From positions 14,496 to 78,495 of the forward strand of contig JALHMV010000002.1 of the NCBI GenBank assembly GCA_022843855.1: DNA of 64,000 nucleotides, given 5' to 3'. The notes below the pieces were generated by a model that did no database searches, was not told the origin of the DNA, and was given only the letters and a program-made list of their open reading frames with translations. The stretch comes from Patescibacteria group bacterium. Lineage in GTDB: Bacteria; Patescibacteriota; UBA1384; 2-12-FULL-50-11. Of the stretch, positions 3,818 to 32,811 are shown piece by piece. The translations under genes were made by a program, and so were the position numbers. Positions within the stretch are counted from its first letter, which is position 1. Each line of letters begins with the position of its first letter.

Positions 3818-3834
3818 TAGAAAGGGGATTGCTT

Positions 3835-4116
3835 ATGAGTTGTCCTGTTTGTAACGAAAACTTGCTGATGAGCGAACGCCACGGGGTAGAGATCGACTAC
3901 TGTCCGAAGTGTCGCGGTATTTGGCTCGATCGCGGTGAGCTTGACAAGCTGTTGTCGCTCTCCGAACAGCACGGTCAATCGCGTACTAAAGAGTTCGAGT
4001 CAGAGGCGCCGCCGACCCCTCGAGATCACGGCCACAGAGACGACAGCGACGATCGTCATCACCGACGACCGCAGCGCAAGCGCGAATCGTGGCTTGGCGA
4101 TATTCTTGATTTTTAG
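3835..4116 (+). CDS. Zinc-ribbon protein (zf-TFIIB-like CPxC...CPxC, GxWLDxGEL) with a His/Arg/Asp-rich tail ending in an LGDILDF-type C-terminus
   Basis: Motifs CPVC...CPKCRGIWLDRGELDKL. RBS AAAGGGGA lies 7 nt upstream of the ATG at 3835. Confidence 0.6.
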   Translation: MSCPVCNENLLMSERHGVEIDYCPKCRGIWLDRGELDKLLSLSEQHGQSRTKEFESEAPPTPRDHGHRDDSDDRHHRRPQRKRESWLGDILDF

Positions 4117-4858: not shown

Positions 4859-7800
4859 ATGGATAAACAGCTACTCAATCGAAAGCGCCTTCGCGTTCTG
4901 GCCGGAGCGGCAGGCGGCGCGTTAGTCGTGATCCTTGTCGCGACCGGGCTATGGTTTCGGGGCGACCAAGAGAACAACAACCTCGCCCAGATCGGAGCCC
5001 CGATCGTCTTTCGAACCAACACTAGCGTTGAGCCAGGTGACACCATCAACGTTATCGGCTCGTTTAACGAGACGGCGCGCGTCTTTTTTCAGGTCATTAC
5101 GAACACCGGTCAGCGAGGGCCTGAACAGAGCTTATCGATCAATAATCAGAGCGGATCGCTTATCCAAGCCGTTCTCCCAGCAGACATTGACGGTTCGTTT
5201 CTTGGCGTGGTCAAGGTAAGGCAAACCGTCGGGTCGGTTGAGAACGTTGAGAGTAACGAACTACTGATCAACGCCCCTCAAGTCAACCACTTTATTACCG
5301 AAGACGTCGCCCCAGGCGAGACGCTTGATATCTTTGGTCGGGATCTCGTTCCCGATCGGGTCAGTACCAAGCGCTTCAGCGCCAGTCGTGTCTATTTTGA
5401 GCGAGACGGGCGACGATACGAAGCGCCGGTCATCAGCGGTGACTGGCTCCACCTTACGGTTCGCGTACCGAACAACCTTCCGCCAGCGAACGACTATCGT
5501 CTGATTATCTCAAACGGTTTGGGCGGCTCGGCAGGAGAAGTGGCAACCACCCGACCGTTATCGGCTGTCCGCGCTGGCACCGATGATAGTCTCGGGCTCG
5601 GAGTCAATTGGGCACGGGAGCTTGATTTTATCAACGATCAGAGTCGAACGATTAACGTCAAGACGGATGGACGCCTCATTGTCAGGGCGATCGGTGACGG
5701 CGTTGCCAACGATCTGCCTGCGTTGCAGGCGGCGATCGATCTTGCGAGCCAACTCGGTGGTGGCGTTGTGTTTGTTCCAGAAGGAACCTATCGTCTTGAT
5801 CTTAACGCCGGTAGTACGATCAGCCTCAAACAACGCGTCGTCGTGCGCGGCAGCGGTAAGGAGAAAACCCGGCTGGTCTACGGCAGCGTCGATCAACCCG
5901 ATAATAAGCGCCTCCTAACCTTCAACCAAGACGCTGATGGCGGACACGCGGGTCTGACAAGTCTGACAATCGAAAACATTAATCACCAAAACCCGAACCC
6001 CGCGCTCCGGGGGCTACCGTGGGCAACCGGCATCGATCTCGGAACCGCTGACTATATCTTTCTGCATCAGGTTCAATATCTGATGGGTAGTAACGACGGG
6101 CTTGGATCTGACTTTGTCAGCCGACTGTTGATTGCTGAGAGCGAATTTATTAATCGCCTCGCGCTCGATCGGAACGTCTTCAATTTTCGTGGCCATATTC
6201 CGCTACAGGCCGTCTCACCAGAACGCCAAAAGAGCGCTGGGCGCTACAACCTCATACGTAACAGCCGATTTGTCTATATCAACGACCGGTTTACCACGCT
6301 CGGTTGGCAAGATAGCGCGCTTATCGGCAACGAAATCACTCGCGATCTTCAGGCAAAGCCCGATCTCCAACGGCACACCGGCTGTTGCAGCGGCGGCTTG
6401 TCGTTCAACTTCAGTAACGATGCGTCGTTTATCGGCAACACCGTTCAGACGATTAACGGCTTCAACCGGCACGGCAATAACGACGGCGAAGGCATCGGCA
6501 GCGAACAGTGGACCGATTATCTCTGGCACCGAGGAACCGTCACGACAGCGACAGCGACGACGCTCGGTGACGCGTCGAGAAAATGGGACACCAGCAATCG
6601 CTGGCCGACGTACAACAACGGCAAAAACTTCGGCCAACCGAAACGAATCGGCACACCCGGATACAATCCGAGCACGGATTACAACAGCGATGGGATCGAC
6701 AGCGATATACCTGCCGATCTCCCGCCCGGTAGTCGGATCGTTCCGTGGGCGCACTACCAACAAGTGATCGTCGCAATTACCGATGGGCATGGCTTCGGCC
6801 AGTGGCGTCGCGTCGTAGGCCATAGTCCAACCGAGCTAACCGTCGACCGGCCGTGGGATGTGATACCTGACAAAACTAGCTCATACAAAGTACTAGTGGC
6901 GACCAATCTCGGTATCACTGTCGCCAATAACCAAGTCCGCGGCAGCGCTGTTGGGATTAATTTCTACGACGGAGTGATCGACTCGCTGATCGCCAATAAC
7001 ACGGTGATTGACGGCGGAGAGATTAGCATCCTGGCCAAAGACCTCCACGGCGGTTACGCGCACAAATCGTGTGACTTTATGGGACACGTTGACGGACCAT
7101 ATTCCCCGCTTCGACAAGCCGGTTTGCGGACCGAACTTGAAAACGTGCCGGCCGCCTACAACGATTGTACGATGCAATCGCTTTCCTGGGACAACGATTT
7201 GATCGGCAACCGAACAGAAAATACTACCGGCCTCTACGTTTCGAGAATCTTTCTCTTGGCGAACAATTTTATCAACGGGAGCGATCACGACGACCAGGAC
7301 TACGTGACCGACTGCAATAGCGACGGGCGCGTTGATTGGGCTGATGTACCGTGCAGCAACGATTATAAAAAGGACCTGCCGGCGCCGTCACACGGAAACG
7401 CGATACTCAATACGACGCTGCGACGTAACACAATCGTCGCTCACCCAACCGCGCTGATGGATAATAACTATCTGCGAAATATTCCGGGGAACGCCGCCAA
7501 GAACGCCGATATCGACTTTGCTTCGCGCGAGCGATTTTATATCGTCGCCGGCGGTTCGGCGCAAGGGATGGTACAAAACGTGCAAGCCGGCGCCAAGCAC
7601 ATCGTCGGGACAGTCCTCGACGACAACGTGATCACCAACTTCAGCGTCTCTGCTGACGACAGTGCCTACAGCTTTTCGCTTGGCACGGCTCAGACCTCCC
7701 TCAAAAGCGACCAACAGCCAGCTCAGTCGTACTGTTACCGAACTAATCTCGGTCGTTCGGACAATCGGGCGTCATCGATTCGATTGATCGTCACCGACCC

Positions 7801-12307: not shown

Positions 12308-13106
12308 CGCTACCGTTTCAACGAAGCCAGTCCAAAGCAGTGCGCTTGGACGGATCTTTTCCGACTCCGCCACGCTTATCAAGCGCAACCTGACTCATAT
12401 AAAGAACAACCCCGATCAGCTGCTCTCAATGGTTTTGCAGCCGGTGATGTTTATGTTGCTCTTCCGTTACGTCTTTGGTGGCGCCATTAACACCGGTGGA
12501 ACAAGTTACGTCAACTTCTTAACCGCCGGTATATTGGTCCAGGGCGCAGCCTTCGGCGCCACCACCACCGCGCTTGGCGTCGCGACCGACTTGCAACGCG
12601 GTATTATCGATCGCTTCCGCTCGCTACCGATGTTTAGTTCAGCCGTCTTAATCGGCCACGTCACAGCCGACCTTGTTCGTAACACCGTCTCCTCCGCGAT
12701 CATGATTGGAGTCGGTTTGATGGTTGGCTTTCGTCCCGAAGCCAACCTTGTCGAATGGTTAATGGCAGCCGGTATCCTCCTGCTCTTTACCTTCGCCATC
12801 TCCTGGCTCTCCGCTATTCTCGGCCTCCTGAGTAAGAGTATCGAAGCGGTCCAGTGGTTTAGCTTTATCGCCATCTTCCCCTTAACATTCGCCTCAAGCG
12901 CTTTCGTTCCAACCGACGGGATGCCGGCCGGTTTGCGATGGTTTGCCGAGAATCAGCCGATTACCCACGTCATCGAAGCCTTACGTGCACTCTTAGTTGG
13001 CACGCCGATCGACAATCACGGGTGGCTGGCCGTTGTCTGGTGTCTTGGTGCGATCGCCGTCTCGGTCCCGCTGACTGCCTACCTCTTCCGCCGCTATTCA
13101 AAGTAA
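12300..13106 (+). CDS. ABC-2 family transporter permease
   Basis: Overlaps the ATPase gene by 8 nt. Six predicted transmembrane helices with an ABC-2-like layout. Confidence 0.75.
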   Translation: MSNATVSTKPVQSSALGRIFSDSATLIKRNLTHIKNNPDQLLSMVLQPVMFMLLFRYVFGGAINTGGTSYVNFLTAGILVQGAAFGATTTALGVATDLQRGIIDRFRSLPMFSSAVLIGHVTADLVRNTVSSAIMIGVGLMVGFRPEANLVEWLMAAGILLLFTFAISWLSAILGLLSKSIEAVQWFSFIAIFPLTFASSAFVPTDGMPAGLRWFAENQPITHVIEALRALLVGTPIDNHGWLAVVWCLGAIAVSVPLTAYLFRRYSK

Positions 13107-13144
13107 GCGGTCGACAATAGGCATCGAGGGCGTACAATACCGCT

Positions 13145-13375
13145 ATGGACTATACAAAATTTGTGAACCTCAGCGGCTTTGAGTTCTCTGGAGCTAGCCT
13201 TGTTATCTTTGTCCTTTTGGCAATCTGGGAGCTGGCATGGAAAGGCCTAGCCTTATGGCGCGCGGCTGGGTTACGACAGAGCGGTTGGTTTGTCGCAATC
13301 CTCATCCTCAATACGTTCGGCGTTCTGCCGATTCTATATCTATACGTTTTCTCTAAGAAAAGTGTCACGCAGTAA
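13145..13375 (+). CDS. Small two-TM membrane protein (conserved hypothetical)
   Basis: 76 aa. Hydrophobic helices FVLLAIWELAWKGLALW and WFVAILILNTFGVLPILYLYVF. Confidence 0.5.
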   Translation: MDYTKFVNLSGFEFSGASLVIFVLLAIWELAWKGLALWRAAGLRQSGWFVAILILNTFGVLPILYLYVFSKKSVTQ

Positions 13376-28036: not shown

Positions 28037-29149
28037 TTAGCTGAGGTAGTCCTTGAGGCGCGATGACTCTTCGTGTTTTTTGAGCTTCTGCAACGCTTTG
28101 GCTTCGATTTGCCGAATACGCTCGCGGGTAACGCCGAATTCTTTTCCAACTTCTTCGAGCGTGTGGGTCTTGCCGCCGTCGTCCAGACCAAAGCGCATCC
28201 GCAAGATCTTCTGCTCCCGGGGCGTCAGGATCGCCAGCGAATCCTGAACATGACCCTTCATGAGCTGGTAGATCGCCTGCTCCTCGGGCGACATCTGCTG
28301 TTTGTCTTCGATAAATTCACCGAGTGTTGAGTCGTTTTCCTCGCCAACCGGCGCCTCAAGCGAGACGATGTCCTGCGAAATCTTCATGATGTGTTCCAGC
28401 TTTTCGACTTCGATACCAAGCTTCTTAGCCAGCTCCTCGTAGGACGGCTCGCGGCCGAGCTCTTGTTGAAGCTCACGCTGAACGCGCATGTAACGGTTAA
28501 TCGTCTCAACCATATGAACCGGGATACGAATAACACGAGCCTGGTCAGCGATTGCGCGCGTAATCGCCTGCCGGATCCACCACGTCGCGTAGGTCGAGAA
28601 CTTAAAGCCTTTTTTATAATCAAATTTTTCGACAGCGCGCTGTAAGCCCAGATTGCCTTCCTGGACCAAGTCCAAGAGCGTCAGGCCCCGACCGATATAT
28701 TTTTTGGCGATCGAAACCACCAGGCGTAAGTTGGCTTCCGTGAGCCGGCGTTTAGCTGCTTTGTCGCCGCGTTCGATTCTTTTTGCTAACCGCACTTCTT
28801 CGCTTGAAGATAGGAGCGGGTACTGTCCGATCTCGCGCAAGTACATCCGGACCGAGTCGTCCGACATGCCTGTCAGATCGTCATCCTTGTCGGGCTTCTT
28901 TTTCATGTCTTCTTCGCTCGGGATTTCGAGAAGCGGTTTGGCGTCACGAATCTCGACACCAATCTGACCGAGGTACTTGGTAAACGAGTCGATCATCTCC
29001 AGATCCTCTTCCGGCTCCGGATAGGCTTGGATAATCTCTTTATACGTTACAAAACCGTGCTGCCGACCCTTGCGGATCAGATACATGAGTTCTTCCGGGA
29101 AACTTACCCCGGCGTCTTGTTTCAGTTTCTTGGGAACTGCTTTTGCCAT
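28037..29149 (-). CDS. rpoD: RNA polymerase primary sigma factor RpoD
   Basis: Regions 1.2 through 4 are strongly conserved ([64 protein letters not shown]). RBS AAAGGAG. Confidence 0.95.
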
Positions 29150-29270: not shown

Positions 29271-31013
29271 TCATCCTCGCTCCTTCGCAAGTTTGCTTAA
29301 TTCTTGCATTAGTTGTTTGACTTGGTTGATATCGCCTTTTTCCTGAGCGCGCCGAATATCCTGAGCGAGCGCTTCCTTGCGACGCTCGTAGCCCTTCGTC
29401 GCGAGTTGACCGAGTTTTTCGCGAAGCAATTCGCCCATGAGTTCGTCAGATATTTCTCCCCACTGATTGGAGAGCCAAAATTGCCACGAGTCGATCTTCT
29501 CACTTACACGTGAGTCAAGGTTGGTTTTTACCTGCGAAAGGAAGACAGACGGCGTTTTCGTCAAGGTCTTGTCAGTATACGCTTTTTTAACCTCGTCGGC
29601 AATCCGGCTAGCCTGTTCACTTTGCCAGACTACCTGCTCAAATTCCGGCTTCATTTTGACCGCGATATCTGGCCGAGCTAAAACGGCGGCAAGAAGCTGC
29701 TCCTCGTTCGTTAGATTTTGAACAGGTACCCGCTCCGGTTGAGTCCCTTGTGATTTTGAGTGAGCAGCAAGACCGGCTTTCTCAAGAGCAGCGTACACCG
29801 CATCATTTTTGACCCCGATCGATAACGCGAGACGCTGCACGTAGTGATCGAGTCGGGTCGGCTCAGTCACCAGCTGCAAGATCGGCAACATCGCTTTTAC
29901 CACTTTCTTTTTATTCTCAATGAACTGGAGGTCTCCAGCGGCTGCGACCTCTTGGCTGATCCACCACTCCAAGCCTTCCTTCGCTTGCTTAACACGCTCG
30001 GGCCAGGCCTTCGGATCCTTTTCCAAGAGCTCACCAGCGTCTTTGGCGCCGGCAAAATCAACAACCTTAACGTTGAGATCAAATCTCAGAAGCGCCTCGA
30101 TCACCTTTTTCGTCGTTGCAACCCCAGCCGAGTCAGCATCAAACGCCAGCAAAAAATTTGTTGTGTACTTCGAGAGAATTAGTAGTTGGGCGTCGGTAAT
30201 GGCTGTTCCCGAACTGGCTACCGCCTGGGTTGCCCCCGCTTGATGGAGCGCGACCACATCCATCTGGCCCTCAACGAGCACGACGTAATCGCGCTCTTTG
30301 ATGCCGGCCTTGGCAAAGTTCAGTCCGTAGATCGTCCTACTCTTGCTAAAAAGCGGGCTGTCGGGTGAGTTGAGGTACTTTGGCTGCGTGTCACCGAGGA
30401 CGCGCCCGGTAAAAGCGATCGTGTGGCCGAGCACATCTTGGATCGGAAACATAATTCGATCAAAGAACTTGTCCGGTGAGCCAGCTTTGACGATATCGGC
30501 AGCGCTAAAACCACGCTTGAGAAGGAAATCGCGCAAACTGAACGTACGCGGGACAAAACCAATGCCAAACTGTTTGATTGTTTCTTCGCTTAAGCCACGC
30601 TTCTTAAGATACTCAAGCGCAGTTTTAGCGACCGGCTGCTCGAGTAGTATCTTCTGAAAAACTTTCGCAGCTAGATTATTGATGCCGTAGAGCGTCTCTT
30701 TTTTGTCGCGAGTTTGGTGTTCGGCCTGGGTCCGCGGCTGAAGCGTCACGCCGGCTTTTTGAGCAAGGAGTCGCAAGGCATCGCCAAACTCGAGGTGCTC
30801 GGCTTCCATGATAAATTTGAAGTGGTCGCCGCCACGGCCGCAGCCAAAGCACTTCCAAATCTGCTTCTGGGGGCTGACCATCATTGACGGGGTTTTTTCC
30901 TGATGGAACGGACAAACGCACTTGTAGTTGGCGCCAGCTTTTTTGAGCGTGACGTACTGACCGATCAGATCCGTCAGATCCAGGCGCGATTTTACTTCTT
31001 CGACTTCGTTCAT
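29271..31013 (-). CDS. dnaG: DNA primase DnaG
   Basis: CHC2 zinc finger CPFHQEKTPSMMV...CFGCGRGGD and the TOPRIM motif LVEGQMDVVAL. The start is placed at the internal ATG (MNEVEEVKSRLDLTDLIGQYV); the ORF-track start at 31124 adds a non-conserved extension. Confidence 0.9.
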   Translation of the reverse strand: MNEVEEVKSRLDLTDLIGQYVTLKKAGANYKCVCPFHQEKTPSMMVSPQKQIWKCFGCGRGGDHFKFIMEAEHLEFGDALRLLAQKAGVTLQPRTQAEHQTRDKKETLYGINNLAAKVFQKILLEQPVAKTALEYLKKRGLSEETIKQFGIGFVPRTFSLRDFLLKRGFSAADIVKAGSPDKFFDRIMFPIQDVLGHTIAFTGRVLGDTQPKYLNSPDSPLFSKSRTIYGLNFAKAGIKERDYVVLVEGQMDVVALHQAGATQAVASSGTAITDAQLLILSKYTTNFLLAFDADSAGVATTKKVIEALLRFDLNVKVVDFAGAKDAGELLEKDPKAWPERVKQAKEGLEWWISQEVAAAGDLQFIENKKKVVKAMLPILQLVTEPTRLDHYVQRLALSIGVKNDAVYAALEKAGLAAHSKSQGTQPERVPVQNLTNEEQLLAAVLARPDIAVKMKPEFEQVVWQSEQASRIADEVKKAYTDKTLTKTPSVFLSQVKTNLDSRVSEKIDSWQFWLSNQWGEISDELMGELLREKLGQLATKGYERRKEALAQDIRRAQEKGDINQVKQLMQELSKLAKERG

Positions 31014-31067
31014 GGGTTGGATGAGTGAATTTAACCTTAAAAGCAGGTAGAATACAAAGGACTTTTT

Positions 31068-31216
31068 GGAAGAGTCGCCTTGATGGTCTATGTGAAGCCA
31101 GCTCCGCTGGCGGAAGAGGGCCACTTGGCAAAATGGAAGAGTCGCCTAGTGGCCTATCTTGAGCTTTGCGAAAGAAGGCCAGTTGGCAAAATGGAAGAGT
31201 CGCCTAGTGGCCTATG
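31068..31216 (+). repeat. Three tandem copies, increasingly degenerate upstream, of the 5' end of tRNA-Ser (GGAAGAGTCGCCTAGTGGCCTAT and flank) with a period of about 59-66 bp. The last copy is the real gene start
   Basis: The 38-nt blocks 31120-31157 and 31178-31215 match at 37 of 38 positions. A weaker copy lies at 31068-31091. Confidence 0.85.
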
Positions 31217-31279
31217 GCGCCGCCTTGGAAAGGCGGTTTACCCTCACGGGTATCGTGGGTTCAAATCCCACCTCTTCCG
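31193..31279 (+). tRNA. tRNA-Ser(GGA), type II with a long variable arm; CCA not encoded
   Basis: Acceptor GGAAGAG/CTCTTCC, anticodon loop TTGGAAA, variable stem-loop ACCC..GGGT, T-arm GTGGG TTCAAAT CCCAC, discriminator G. Confidence 0.85.
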
Positions 31280-31473
31280 CAGTACAAGGCAACTGCTCCC
31301 CGCACTTCTAGGATTCGTCCAGCGTGCCCGTTTCTCCCGTTGGTCGAAATCGTGGGTTCAAATCCCACCTCTTCCGCAGTACAAGGCAACTGCTCCCCGC
31401 ACTTCTAGGATTCGTCCAGCGTGCCCGTTTCTCCCGTTGGTCGAAATCGTGGGTTCAAATCCCACCTCTTCCG
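31280..31473 (+). repeat. Two identical 97-bp tandem units, each ending with the 3'-terminal 28 nt of tRNA-Ser (ATCGTGGGTTCAAATCCCACCTCTTCCG)
   Basis: 31280-31376 and 31377-31473 are identical. Each is an 69-nt spacer plus the tRNA 3' fragment. Confidence 0.95.
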
Positions 31474-31507
31474 CGATATTGGTAGACTAACAAGAGAAGG
31501 AGAAGGA

Positions 31508-31885
31508 ATGAAAAATCGTGTGGTGCATTTTGAGATTGGCTCGGAAAATCCGGGTAAGTTGTCGGAGTTTTATAAGAAAGCGCTCGGCTGGGAGATTAAC
31601 GAGTGGCCGGGGAGCGACTACTGGATGGTCGGTAAGGAAGAGGACCGCGCTGTTGGCGCCATCAACGGCGGCATCATGAAACGGTTTGAGAAAGAAGGGA
31701 CGATCAACACGATCGAGGTTGAGGATATCGAAGCCTCAATCAAAGACGTAATCGATGCTGGCGGCACGATCGCCAAACCACTCGCCGACATGGACTTCGG
31801 CGACGACCAGATTATGCGTTGGTGCTACTGCAAAGACCCAGACGGCAACGTCTTCAGCCTGATGCAGGTGGTCCCCAAGAAGTAA
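31508..31885 (+). CDS. VOC/glyoxalase-bleomycin-resistance family protein
   Basis: RBS GAAGGAGAAGGA. VHFEIGSENPGKLSEFYKKALGWE is a typical VOC N-terminus. The ORF-track start at 31421 runs into the tRNA repeats. Confidence 0.7.
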   Translation: MKNRVVHFEIGSENPGKLSEFYKKALGWEINEWPGSDYWMVGKEEDRAVGAINGGIMKRFEKEGTINTIEVEDIEASIKDVIDAGGTIAKPLADMDFGDDQIMRWCYCKDPDGNVFSLMQVVPKK

Positions 31886-32344
31886 TTACTGGCCTTCGCG
31901 CTTTTTGCGCGCTTCCATTAGTTCGACAGTGTCTTTAATGAGTCGGCGCAAGACTGACTCGTCGATGTCGGAGAGCTTGTTGAAATAAAGACAGACCTTG
32001 CTGGTCGTGTGCTTGCCGAGCTTCTTTAGGAGCGGTGTTGGGTCGTAGCCAGACGCGATCGAATACTCCTCAAAGCCGGTCATGATGTAAGCAGTCATGG
32101 ACTGGACTCGCGGCGAGAATCCAGTCAGCGGCATATCGCCCTCCCGACCGGAGGCGTACTTGTAGTGGTACGTCCCGAAGCCGATAATAGCCGGTCCCCA
32201 CATTTTGGCGGGGTAGCCCGTCTCCTCCTCAAAGATTTTCAAGAGCTTCAAGGCATCTTCACGGCGCTGCTTGTTGGGAACGCCGAGGATAAAGGCCTTA
32301 ACATCTCCATCGTTCTCGACGGTTTTGTTTTCGTTTCTGCTCAT
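31886..32344 (-). CDS. Conserved hypothetical protein (DUF1801-like family with an MWGPxIIGFGxYHYKY motif)
   Basis: 152-aa ORF. The motif MWGPAIIGFGTYHYKYASGREGD is recalled from a widespread family. Confidence 0.5.
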   Translation of the reverse strand: MSRNENKTVENDGDVKAFILGVPNKQRREDALKLLKIFEEETGYPAKMWGPAIIGFGTYHYKYASGREGDMPLTGFSPRVQSMTAYIMTGFEEYSIASGYDPTPLLKKLGKHTTSKVCLYFNKLSDIDESVLRRLIKDTVELMEARKKREGQ

Positions 32345-32391
32345 TAGGCAGATTCTAGCAAAATTGAGTCACTACCCGCATAATCCAAGCG

Positions 32392-32811
32392 ATGCGTCTT
32401 TGGAGCCTCCACCCGAAAAATCTGGACCGTCAGGGCTTGCTCGCCCTTTGGCGCGAAGGATTGCTCGCTAAGAAAGTCCTCAGAGGCGGGACGAAGGGTT
32501 ACGCCAACCACCCGCAGCTACAACGCTTTCGCTCTCACGCTGATAGTGGAGCAGCGATTAATCACTTCCTGCATGTAGTTGCTGACGAGGCCCAGCGGCG
32601 AGGCTATCGCTTTGACCGTAGTAAACTGCAAGCTGTCGATGGAGTCGAGCCTATTGCAGTGACAAGCGGTCAGGTTGAGTACGAATTTGAGCACCTTCGT
32701 AAGAAACTATCCGCTCGAGACCCGGCTCGCGTCGACACTCTCACCAACGACGTTCACCCGCTCTTTCGCGTCATCGACGGACCTGTTGAACGCTGGGAGA
32801 TTGTTAAATGA
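32392..32811 (+). CDS. Pyrimidine dimer DNA glycosylase family protein (T4 endoV-like)
   Basis: N-terminus MRLWSLHPKNLDRQGLLALWREGLLA is characteristic. Confidence 0.65.
   Translation: MRLWSLHPKNLDRQGLLALWREGLLAKKVLRGGTKGYANHPQLQRFRSHADSGAAINHFLHVVADEAQRRGYRFDRSKLQAVDGVEPIAVTSGQVEYEFEHLRKKLSARDPARVDTLTNDVHPLFRVIDGPVERWEIVK

Follow-up and report, generated by a model that had tools for sequence, protein, structure and literature searches.

Organization of the locus

We analysed a 64,000-nucleotide stretch of DNA from a Patescibacteria group bacterium (contig JALHMV010000002.1, positions 14,496 to 78,495 of the forward strand; hereafter 'the window'), focusing on a tRNA-Ser(GGA) gene that is bracketed by repeated copies of its own 5′ and 3′ ends. 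The gene (31193–31280, + strand; found by ARAGORN and by an Rfam tRNA match of 56.2 bits) is 88 nt in length, intact, and the sole tRNA gene of the window. Its product is a class II tRNA with a long variable arm, and the CCA is not encoded. Reading along the + strand, a promoter-like motif (TGAATT at 31026–31031 and TAGAAT at 31048–31053, with a 16 nt spacer and a spacer palindrome at 31033–31048) is followed by leader unit 1 (31068–31134), leader unit 2 (31135–31192), the tRNA gene, and two 97-nt trailer units (31281–31377 and 31378–31474). The array is situated between the divergently transcribed DNA primase gene dnaG (29271–31013, − strand; identified from its translation and from the Pfam domains Zn_ribbon_DnaG, DNAG_N and Toprim), after which comes rpoD (28037–29149), and a VOC/glyoxalase-family gene (31508–31885, + strand; identified from its translation and Pfam, with a ribosome-binding site at approximately 31496–31501), the start codon of which is separated from the last 3′ copy by 33 nt. 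The initial annotation of this locus had described a tRNA-Ser(GGA) gene with copies of its ends on both sides, placed between dnaG and a VOC gene. ARAGORN, Rfam, Tandem Repeats Finder and a repeat search agree with the former statement, as do the translations and Pfam matches with the latter. The presence of an intact 88-nt tRNA-Ser(GGA) in the centre of the array rules out a split or permuted tRNA gene.

Structure of the leader and trailer units

Each leader module is 58–67 nt in length and begins with a copy of tRNA nucleotides 1–23. Leader unit 1, which is of a GTGAAGC subtype, opens with an outer copy (31068–31090) comprising 13 exact nucleotides and then a diverged D-part, and leader unit 2, of a CTTGAGC subtype, opens with a perfect repeat of the first 23 nt of the tRNA (31135–31157). 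The 5′ copies are spaced 67 and 58 nt from start to start. A 12-mer with at most one mismatch is expected only about 0.0015 times per 700 nt, and the copies therefore do not result from chance. Three upstream copies, progressively degenerate away from the gene, had originally been listed; there are two, in addition to the gene's own 5′ end. The description of progressive degeneration is also incorrect, because the two units represent different subtypes that are both found in the related genome L190 in the opposite order. The outer leader is thus a distinct subtype, common to relatives, and not merely a decayed copy.

Leader unit 1 contains an apical hairpin (GCCAGC/GCTGGC), an 'anti-D' segment (31118–31129) and the linker TTGGCAAAAT, and scores 65 bits against a covariance model of the units, with a predicted minimum free energy (MFE) of −24.3 kcal/mol (z-score −1.7). 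Leader unit 2 likewise forms a hairpin, with an anti-D segment at 31177–31187 and its first 9 nt (including the acceptor strand) unpaired (68.7 bits; MFE −22.4 kcal/mol, z-score −3.1). In an alignment of nine leader units from six genomes, the copied acceptor strand and nucleotides 8–9 are unpaired in every unit, leaving the 7-nt acceptor strand single-stranded in the unit fold, and the copy of the D-arm and D-loop forms the 5′ strand of the hairpin. The 3′ strand is purine-rich and ends in the anti-D segment, which is complementary to tRNA nucleotides 10–21; it is followed by an A/T-rich linker with a T at position −1. The apical stem covaries between units (GCTC/GAGC, GCCAGC/GCTGGC and GCCG/CGGC), and 83.8% of alignment cells in the hairpin are paired, as compared to 37–50% when the partners are slid by 1–3 columns. 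The + strand has a lower MFE than the − strand, and G-U cells outnumber A-C cells by 9 to 3; these asymmetries lean weakly towards an RNA on the tRNA strand. The leader covariance model identified just the two units within the 64-kb window, and in 94 other sources its matches were found only beside tRNA-Ser. Dispersed hairpin repeats, such as repetitive extragenic palindromes (REP/REPIN) or miniature inverted-repeat transposable elements (MITEs), are ruled out by this lack of scattering.

Downstream of the tRNA, Tandem Repeats Finder reported a repeat with a period of 97 nt (31252–31474; 2.3 copies, 100% identity), in keeping with the two identical tandem units noted at the outset, which a repeat search also recovered. 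The last 29 nt of the tRNA (nucleotides 60–88, ATCGTGGGTTCAAATCCCACCTCTTCCGC; initially given as 28 nt) occur three times, starting at 31252, 31349 and 31446, and are accompanied by two full 97-nt units. Trailer unit 1 consists of a 68-nt spacer and then a copy of the T-arm and 3′ acceptor strand (31349–31377); trailer unit 2 is 100% identical to it, with its 3′ copy at 31446–31474. The spacer of unit 1 contains two hairpins, GCAGT/ACTGC at 31279–31296 and GGATTCGTCCAGCG/CGTTGGTCGAAATC at 31311–31351. A T is found at position −1 of all three 5′ copies (including that of the gene itself) and a G after every 3′ copy.

Copy number and conservation among relatives

Retrieval by DnaG homology placed the window among the Patescibacteria (Candidate Phyla Radiation, CPR), the closest relatives being labelled Berkelbacteria or Saccharibacteria; the DnaG sequence of the window itself had no exact match among recorded proteins. 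These relatives were found through their DnaG homologues, with one (L186) contributed by a metagenome scan. A tRNA-Ser(GGA) gene beside dnaG is a synteny that is kept in relatives, and the tRNA itself is nearly identical to that of the window, while its flanks differ. Three relatives (L189, L195 and L196, with DnaG identities of 86%, 72% and 68%) have neither leader nor trailer. One leader is present in L193 (86%), together with a degenerate trailer of a hairpin type; in L186 (75%), with no trailer; and in L191 (84%), with a single trailer unit that is homologous to those of the window and matches their last ∼36 nt. L190 (81%) has two leaders and no trailer, and the window has two of each. The initial annotation had suggested that related genomes be inspected for empty sites and differing copy numbers; both were found, and the arrays are not identical across the relatives, which carry 0, 1 or 2 units.

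The non-tRNA parts of the units are 60–97% identical between genomes, with leader units reaching 0.80–0.97. L190 carries both of the leader subtypes in swapped order, and the non-tRNA part of leader unit 2 is 97% identical to that of L190 unit A. Leader unit 1 is closest to the units of L186 and L191, and is 0.80 identical to the L186 unit in its non-tRNA part. By comparison, 4-fold degenerate sites of dnaG are only 0.37–0.48 identical between the window and its relatives (random expectation 0.27), indicating that neutral sites are close to saturation. The similarity of the leader units would accordingly reflect either purifying selection or exchange between lineages. The acceptor copies have decayed in L190 and L191, and homology of the units extends approximately 10 nt upstream of +1 in L186, L191 and L193.

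A separate conserved hairpin lies 53–68 nt after the tRNA in L003 (an 85%-identical relative) and at the same position in L193; its interior reads TGGGATTCCGC(A/G)GGTCGTATGACCGAG. The stem in L003 mimics an acceptor/T-stem minihelix (GAAGAG-TGGG ... CCCA-CCTCTTC), and in L193 the stem is altered on both sides (GAGCGGG/CCCGCTC).

A conserved promoter-like motif

The motif TGAATT-N16-TA(A/G)AAT is conserved in 16 of 25 related loci. The distance from its −10 element to the tRNA +1 position is 10–23 nt in relatives that lack copies, and that to the first 5′ copy is 14–34 nt in the leader-bearing genomes. These matching distances indicate that the first copy holds the ancestral +1 position and that the working tRNA has been pushed downstream. 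A strict sigma-70 consensus scan called no promoter, and the assignment of the motif (31026–31053) as a probable promoter directed towards the tRNA therefore rests on its conservation. A terminator scan found none between the tRNA array and the VOC gene. Located between the promoter-like motif and the next gene, the modules would be transcribed as part of the tRNA precursor.

Several further features of this region were observed. A conserved motif, TGAATTTAACC-N-GGTAAAATACAAAGG, is found between dnaG and the tRNA (31026–31067 in the window; also in L005, L009, L013, L014, L016, L189, L193 and others). It has the form of a promoter towards the tRNA, and its opposite strand reads TTGTAT-N17-TTAAAT towards dnaG, which would make overlapping divergent promoters. 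The spacer palindrome covaries between genomes (ACCTG/CAGGT, ACCCTA/TAGGGT) and may be an operator. L005 and L016 have leaders of approximately 150 nt between the motif and +1 that contain no recognisable self-copy, and these may be diverged modules or a different leader element.

Self-copy modules in other Patescibacteria

We scanned about 130 tRNA-Ser loci for duplicated tRNA termini. Copies of the 5′ end were found upstream of the gene at nine loci (L011, L012, L013, L014, L020, L041, L062, L076 and L088), and copies of the 3′ end downstream of it in L003, L008, L049, L088, L107, L110, L128, L140, L143, L159, L167–L169 and L177. All of these self-copies are on the tRNA strand and are bounded by the mature tRNA ends. 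The 5′ copies track the tRNA of their own genome (GGAAGAG versus GGAGAGG versus GGAGGCG), and so do the anti-D segments (CACTAG versus CACTATGC versus CACTCTGGC).

Two distant genomes, L014 (∼3818–3931, − strand) and L076 (∼1712–1831, + strand; here the tRNA is co-directional with dnaG), share homologous leaders of approximately 115 nt. In each the 18-nt copy matches the resident tRNA (GGAGAGGTCGCATAGTGG versus GGAGGCGTGCCAGAGTGG), as does its complement (CACTATGC versus CACTCTGGC), and two further hairpins display compensatory changes. A GAGGCTCCGCCGAG box that is conserved in both leaders can pair with a hairpin loop and may form a pseudoknot.

A trailer module of approximately 110–150 nt is found downstream of tRNA-Ser in the Patescibacteria-like contigs L107, L110, L128, L140, L143, L159, L167–L169, L088 and L108, and at a tRNA-Ser(GCT) gene in L049. 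Its design mirrors that of the leader: it opens with a hairpin resembling a terminator, continues with the T-loop region in inverted copy and approximately 90 nt of hairpins, and closes with a direct copy of the 3′ strands of the T-stem and acceptor stem, which terminates in CCA and has a free acceptor tail. The inverted T-loop copy (GGATTCGAAC or GGATTTGAAC) matches the tRNA of each locus, and at least three sequence subtypes of the trailer exist. L088 has one leader and one trailer and is predicted to adopt a nested fold. Rfam E-value scans of the window (30000–32500), of four leader-bearing loci and of nine trailer-bearing loci found nothing beyond tRNA and chance matches below threshold.

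Predicted fold of the precursor

The MFE structure of a 426-nt precursor (31055–31480; −166.7 kcal/mol, z-score −3.9) is a set of nested shells, in which the tRNA cloverleaf occupies the centre, leader unit 2 is paired with the middle 3′ copy, and leader unit 1 is paired with the last 3′ copy. Each predicted outer shell comprises a 7-bp acceptor-like stem stacked on a complete copy of the T-arm, with the leader hairpin in the position of the D-arm and the trailer hairpin in that of the variable arm, directly 5′ of the T-arm. The acceptor stem and T-arm are retained when leader and trailer are cofolded as two pieces. The predicted fold thus presents a minihelix, with an acceptor-like helix of ∼7 bp on a T-arm, a single-stranded 5′ leader and a 3′ discriminator. 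Such a geometry suffices for RNase P and RNase Z according to their substrate rules, and the outer shells are predicted to offer sites of both types. The numbers of leaders and trailers are equal in the window, L191 and L088, and unequal in L190, L013 and many trailer-only loci.

Two additional complementarities were seen between leaders and trailers. GCCTTG in the diverged D-copy of leader unit 1 (31077–31082) is perfectly complementary to CAAGGC of the trailer spacer (31286–31291), and CCTAG of leader unit 2 (31145–31149) is complementary to CTAGG (31308–31312) of the same spacer. These would represent leader–trailer contacts beyond the acceptor stems, and may be due to chance.

Interpretation of the array

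The array is best read as a locally amplified, 2 + 2 version of two short kinds of module that flank tRNA-Ser in this clade. As to what the modules are, the account that we favour, with about an even chance of being right, is that they are conserved but dispensable leader and trailer elements of the tRNA-Ser precursor that change in number through recombination or slippage and have a role in folding or processing. Units would be gained and lost, to give 0, 1 or 2, as the direct repeats derived from the tRNA recombine unequally or slip during replication. The modules would act in cis on the RNA, in the folding and processing of the precursor: leader acceptor copies would pair with trailer acceptor copies to create outer acceptor-like stems on the T-arm copies, and one shell after another would then be removed from the precursor, releasing the downstream VOC mRNA. 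The first module could have originated from an old integration or from a fold-back template switch. The initial annotation had mentioned tandem duplication and structured RNAs that reuse tRNA modules as alternatives to integration, and these fit the data better than integration does, in view of the array-like variation in copy number, the alignment-supported hairpin, and the reuse of acceptor/D and T-arm/acceptor segments.

A number of points weigh against a role in precursor processing. The descriptive part of the account (the anatomy of the modules, the leader-unit hairpin, the conservation of the units and their absence from some relatives) is demonstrated, and is much firmer than the functional part, which is deduced from sequence only. 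The covariation comes from nine related sequences, and both sides have changed in only 4 pairs. The similarity between units could be due to lateral exchange, with the conserved tRNA and promoter as anchors for homologous recombination, and the complementarity between anti-D and tRNA could persist through mutational correction of quasi-palindromes. The modules are dispensable, being absent from three relatives at 68–86% DnaG identity. Nested pairing is not obligatory, given the unequal numbers of units at some loci (2 + 0 in L190 and L013; 0 + 1 at many metagenome loci). In the MFE structures of L186 and L191, the anti-D segment pairs with the real D region of the tRNA, which would misfold the tRNA, and the leader acceptor copy pairs with the tRNA 3′ strand. 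This alternative fold might represent a decoy/anti-decoy switch, or equally a liability that is normally masked by the leader hairpin. Finally, self-copies were observed at 0 of 19 non-Ser tRNAs as compared to about 23 of 126 Ser tRNAs (P ∼ 0.02, calculated as 0.82^19 on the assumption of equal rates), a control that is weak and too small to claim specificity for serine.

We regard it as possible, although somewhat unlikely, that the array is a neutral by-product. In that case, replication slippage or a switch of template, at a gene that is rich in hairpins and highly transcribed, would have partly duplicated the tRNA ends, and the array would expand and contract in the manner of a minisatellite; the copies would persist because one intact tRNA remains, and hairpins would be kept only to the extent that they prevent interference with tRNA folding. 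The polymorphism in presence and copy number among close relatives is consistent with such a process, as are the decayed acceptor copies in L190 and L191 and the uncoupled numbers of leaders and trailers. The 100% identity of the two 97-nt units indicates a very recent duplication, and the ∼10 nt of homology upstream of +1 in three relatives is expected of tandem duplication. However, conservation of the units outside their tRNA-derived parts far exceeds that of the near-saturated synonymous sites, two unit subtypes are common to the window and L190, and the boundaries of the copies coincide in every case with tRNA domain and mature-end boundaries. In addition, compensatory changes are found in hairpins of the L014 and L076 leaders that are not derived from tRNA, and simple tandem duplication cannot make the loop and the anti-D segment, neither of which the copy-less relatives possess.

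A more elaborate functional proposal, which we consider doubtful, is that the leader and trailer pieces remain paired once the inner tRNA has been freed by RNase P and RNase Z, forming a two-piece, tRNA-Ser-like RNA that lacks an anticodon arm, or that the anti-D segment is a switch controlling maturation. In such an RNA, the leader piece would provide the acceptor 5′ strand and a D-like hairpin; the T-arm, the acceptor 3′ strand and a hairpin resembling a variable arm would come from the trailer piece. Seryl-tRNA synthetase (SerRS) disregards the anticodon and reads the acceptor stem and long variable arm, so that CCA addition to such two-piece RNAs, and even their serylation, may be possible. 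If true, the two-piece RNAs would be tRNA mimics of a new class; alternatively, the array would have a built-in switch, with anti-D pairing in turn with the decoy copy and with the real D-arm.

Partial copies of a tRNA gene call to mind integration at that gene, which the initial annotation took as the classic source of repeated 3′ fragments. On this reading, elements that had integrated into tRNA-Ser at the T-arm, and others at the D-loop, would have produced attL/attR duplications and later been reduced by deletion to their attachment arms, as remnants in the manner of cis-mobilizable elements (CIME-like), after which amplification between repeats would have multiplied the 97-nt unit. We find this origin improbable. 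It would account for the 3′ copies, which span the T-arm to the exact end of the tRNA as at classical attachment (att) sites, and for the position of the first 5′ copy at the ancestral +1, where an insertion that duplicates its target would place it; empty sites exist, which are also expected under the other models. tRNA fragments left by integration are common in prokaryotes, and tRNA-Ser is a common target (PMC9897764), as illustrated by junctions of an integrase with a partial tRNA-Ser(TGA) in the viral contigs L085 and L086. However, no integrase or mobile-element gene was found within ∼5 kb on either side of the array (where the neighbours are VOC, DUF1801, DNA glycosylases, TspO, dnaG and rpoD), nor at the tRNA locus of any relative examined. 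The spacers are short (35–68 nt), structured and conserved, the units keep a constant small size and a conserved sequence across lineages, and the copies flank the gene on both sides, unlike the one-sided duplication at att sites. Circles of 58–97 bp are too small to serve as recombinase substrates, which also counts against the scar reading.

Comparisons with mobile DNA gave a similar result. BLAST of the whole array against phages and plasmids matched only the tRNA itself, a search whose sensitivity is limited by the small number of known Patescibacteria phages. Among viral contigs, an exact 30-mer of the trailer spacer and the type-B leader pattern were absent, the leader junction pattern produced a single chance match inside a recombinase coding sequence, and the tRNA 3′ 26-mer matched tRNA-Ser(TGA) genes of phages as well as two integrase/att junctions that have no relation to the spacers of the window. 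A search for distant (>800 nt) tRNA-end copies with an intervening element returned only a decayed tRNA-Ser copy in L107, with no integrase; this copy, 2.3 kb downstream of the intact gene, might be counted in favour of integration. The L107 copy (∼2725–2790, oriented) is a tRNA-Ser(GGA) with an internal deletion and a mutated 5′ end, and a gene for a secreted-protein-like product of 566 aa lies between it and the intact tRNA; the arrangement may be an old duplication or an island boundary. In L085 (∼13000–13370, oriented) and L086 (∼6440–6795, oriented), the C-terminus of a tyrosine recombinase directly precedes a partial tRNA-Ser(TGA) that extends from the anticodon loop to CCA, a classical attachment-site architecture that stands in contrast to the window.

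It is very unlikely that the repeated D-copy/anti-D palindromes downstream of the promoter act at the level of DNA, where a transcriptional regulator of the tRNA (or of dnaG-rpoD) would bind them. As inverted repeats, the units fold equally well as DNA whichever strand is taken, and they adjoin overlapping divergent promoter-like motifs, but the leader stays with the tRNA where dnaG is co-directional (L076) or another gene intervenes (L191), G-U pairs exceed A-C pairs on the + strand, and the trailer copies would be left unexplained. A type III toxin-antitoxin RNA array was also rejected, because the downstream gene encodes a VOC enzyme and not a toxin.

Support from independent assemblies

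Mis-assembly of short repeats could in principle create a 97-nt duplication or distort the number of units, and would be suspected from the 100% identity of the two trailer units, from the breakage of short-read assemblies of the same population within the repeat, and from a 100-N gap in place of the leader in L003. Two contigs from other samples (L001 and L002), which encode a VOC protein identical to that of the window, both end within the trailer. L002 independently bears 77 nt of the trailer unit, 100% identical, beside the VOC gene. L001 begins exactly at the 30-mer (AATCG...CGC) that opens the last 3′ copy; by the logic of de Bruijn graphs, a break at this point in a k = 31 graph would need at least two trailer copies preceded by A. 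Together with the gap in L003, these contig ends indicate that the repeat is not peculiar to one assembly. The trailer unit also has a homologue in L191, and the leader units are mutually diverged, such that neither collapse nor expansion can explain them. We conclude that an assembly artefact is highly improbable.

Relation to known systems

The closest precedent is provided by the repeats of the E. coli tyrT-tyrV operon (rttR). Our inspection of that locus showed three units with 178 nt spacing and 95% identity, the last of which overlaps 19 nt of the tyrV 3′ end and carries the rttR annotation. Bosl and Kersten (1991), cited in PMC3318445, reported that a stable RNA is produced from one unit. 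The rttR/rtT RNA and tpr repeats resemble the array in the window in that tandem units come directly after the gene for a class II tRNA and every unit closes with that tRNA's own 3′-terminal segment. The two differ in that there is no sequence or Rfam similarity (scan of 30000–32500), that the window unit is 97 rather than 178 nt and bears the whole T-arm, and that the window has no small open reading frame (ORF) like tpr. Moreover, the E. coli leader has no copies of the tRNA 5′ end, so that nested leader–trailer pairing is impossible there.

The array also shares features with leader–trailer processing stems and tRNA-like punctuation (rRNA operon stems, minihelices, tmRNA and mascRNA-type elements), in which complementary flanks are predicted to pair around a stable RNA, and with minimal RNase P substrates, in its predicted 7-bp acceptor-like stem on a T-arm, U at −1 and discriminator G. 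Unlike processing stems, the flanks in the window copy the RNA's own ends, the stems are 7–8 bp, repeated and nested, and cleavage is predicted only. A third comparison is with small RNAs (sRNAs) encoded beyond the first terminator of stable-RNA operons, such as E. coli rrA/rrB/rrF and the sponges derived from tRNA 3′ external transcribed spacers (3′ETS). sRNAs transcribed by read-through in rRNA operons are described in PMC8144298, and the trailers of other lineages are similar in following a terminator-like hairpin after the tRNA; the trailer of the window, in contrast, has no such hairpin, and the modules end in a tRNA acceptor tail. No precedent for the mirrored 5′ modules was found in Rfam or the literature searched, and literature searches returned no account of self-copy leaders at Patescibacteria tRNA-Ser genes.

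Partial tRNA copies are routinely read as integration footprints and used to delimit genomic islands, and this locus illustrates a second source of them. The modules are short, conserved, structured and variable in copy number, are built of direct and inverted copies of tRNA ends, and recur at the tRNA-Ser genes of several Patescibacteria lineages. Should they prove to be processed RNAs, tRNA maturation would gain a new cis-acting element, in a phylum where RNA biology has hardly been explored, and the modules would be only the second example, after E. coli tyrT/rttR, of tRNA-end-bearing repeats within a tRNA transcription unit. At a practical level, the repeats break short-read assemblies beside dnaG and can be mis-called as hypothetical ORFs or pseudo-tRNAs.

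Variation in the flanking genes

The VOC gene also directly follows the tRNA in L015 and L174. Elsewhere the interval between tRNA-Ser and VOC varies, containing MscL and dihydroorotate dehydrogenase, DUF3466, CarS-like and MscL, or nothing (L189, L190, L191 and the window, 31475–31900). The 3′ side of the tRNA is thus a variable region among close relatives, without an integrase. On the other side, a LAGLIDADG-type gene is located between tRNA-Ser(GGA) and dnaG in L197 (1308–1979), and one DnaG homologue (P0092, 979 aa) contains intein or homing-endonuclease domains.

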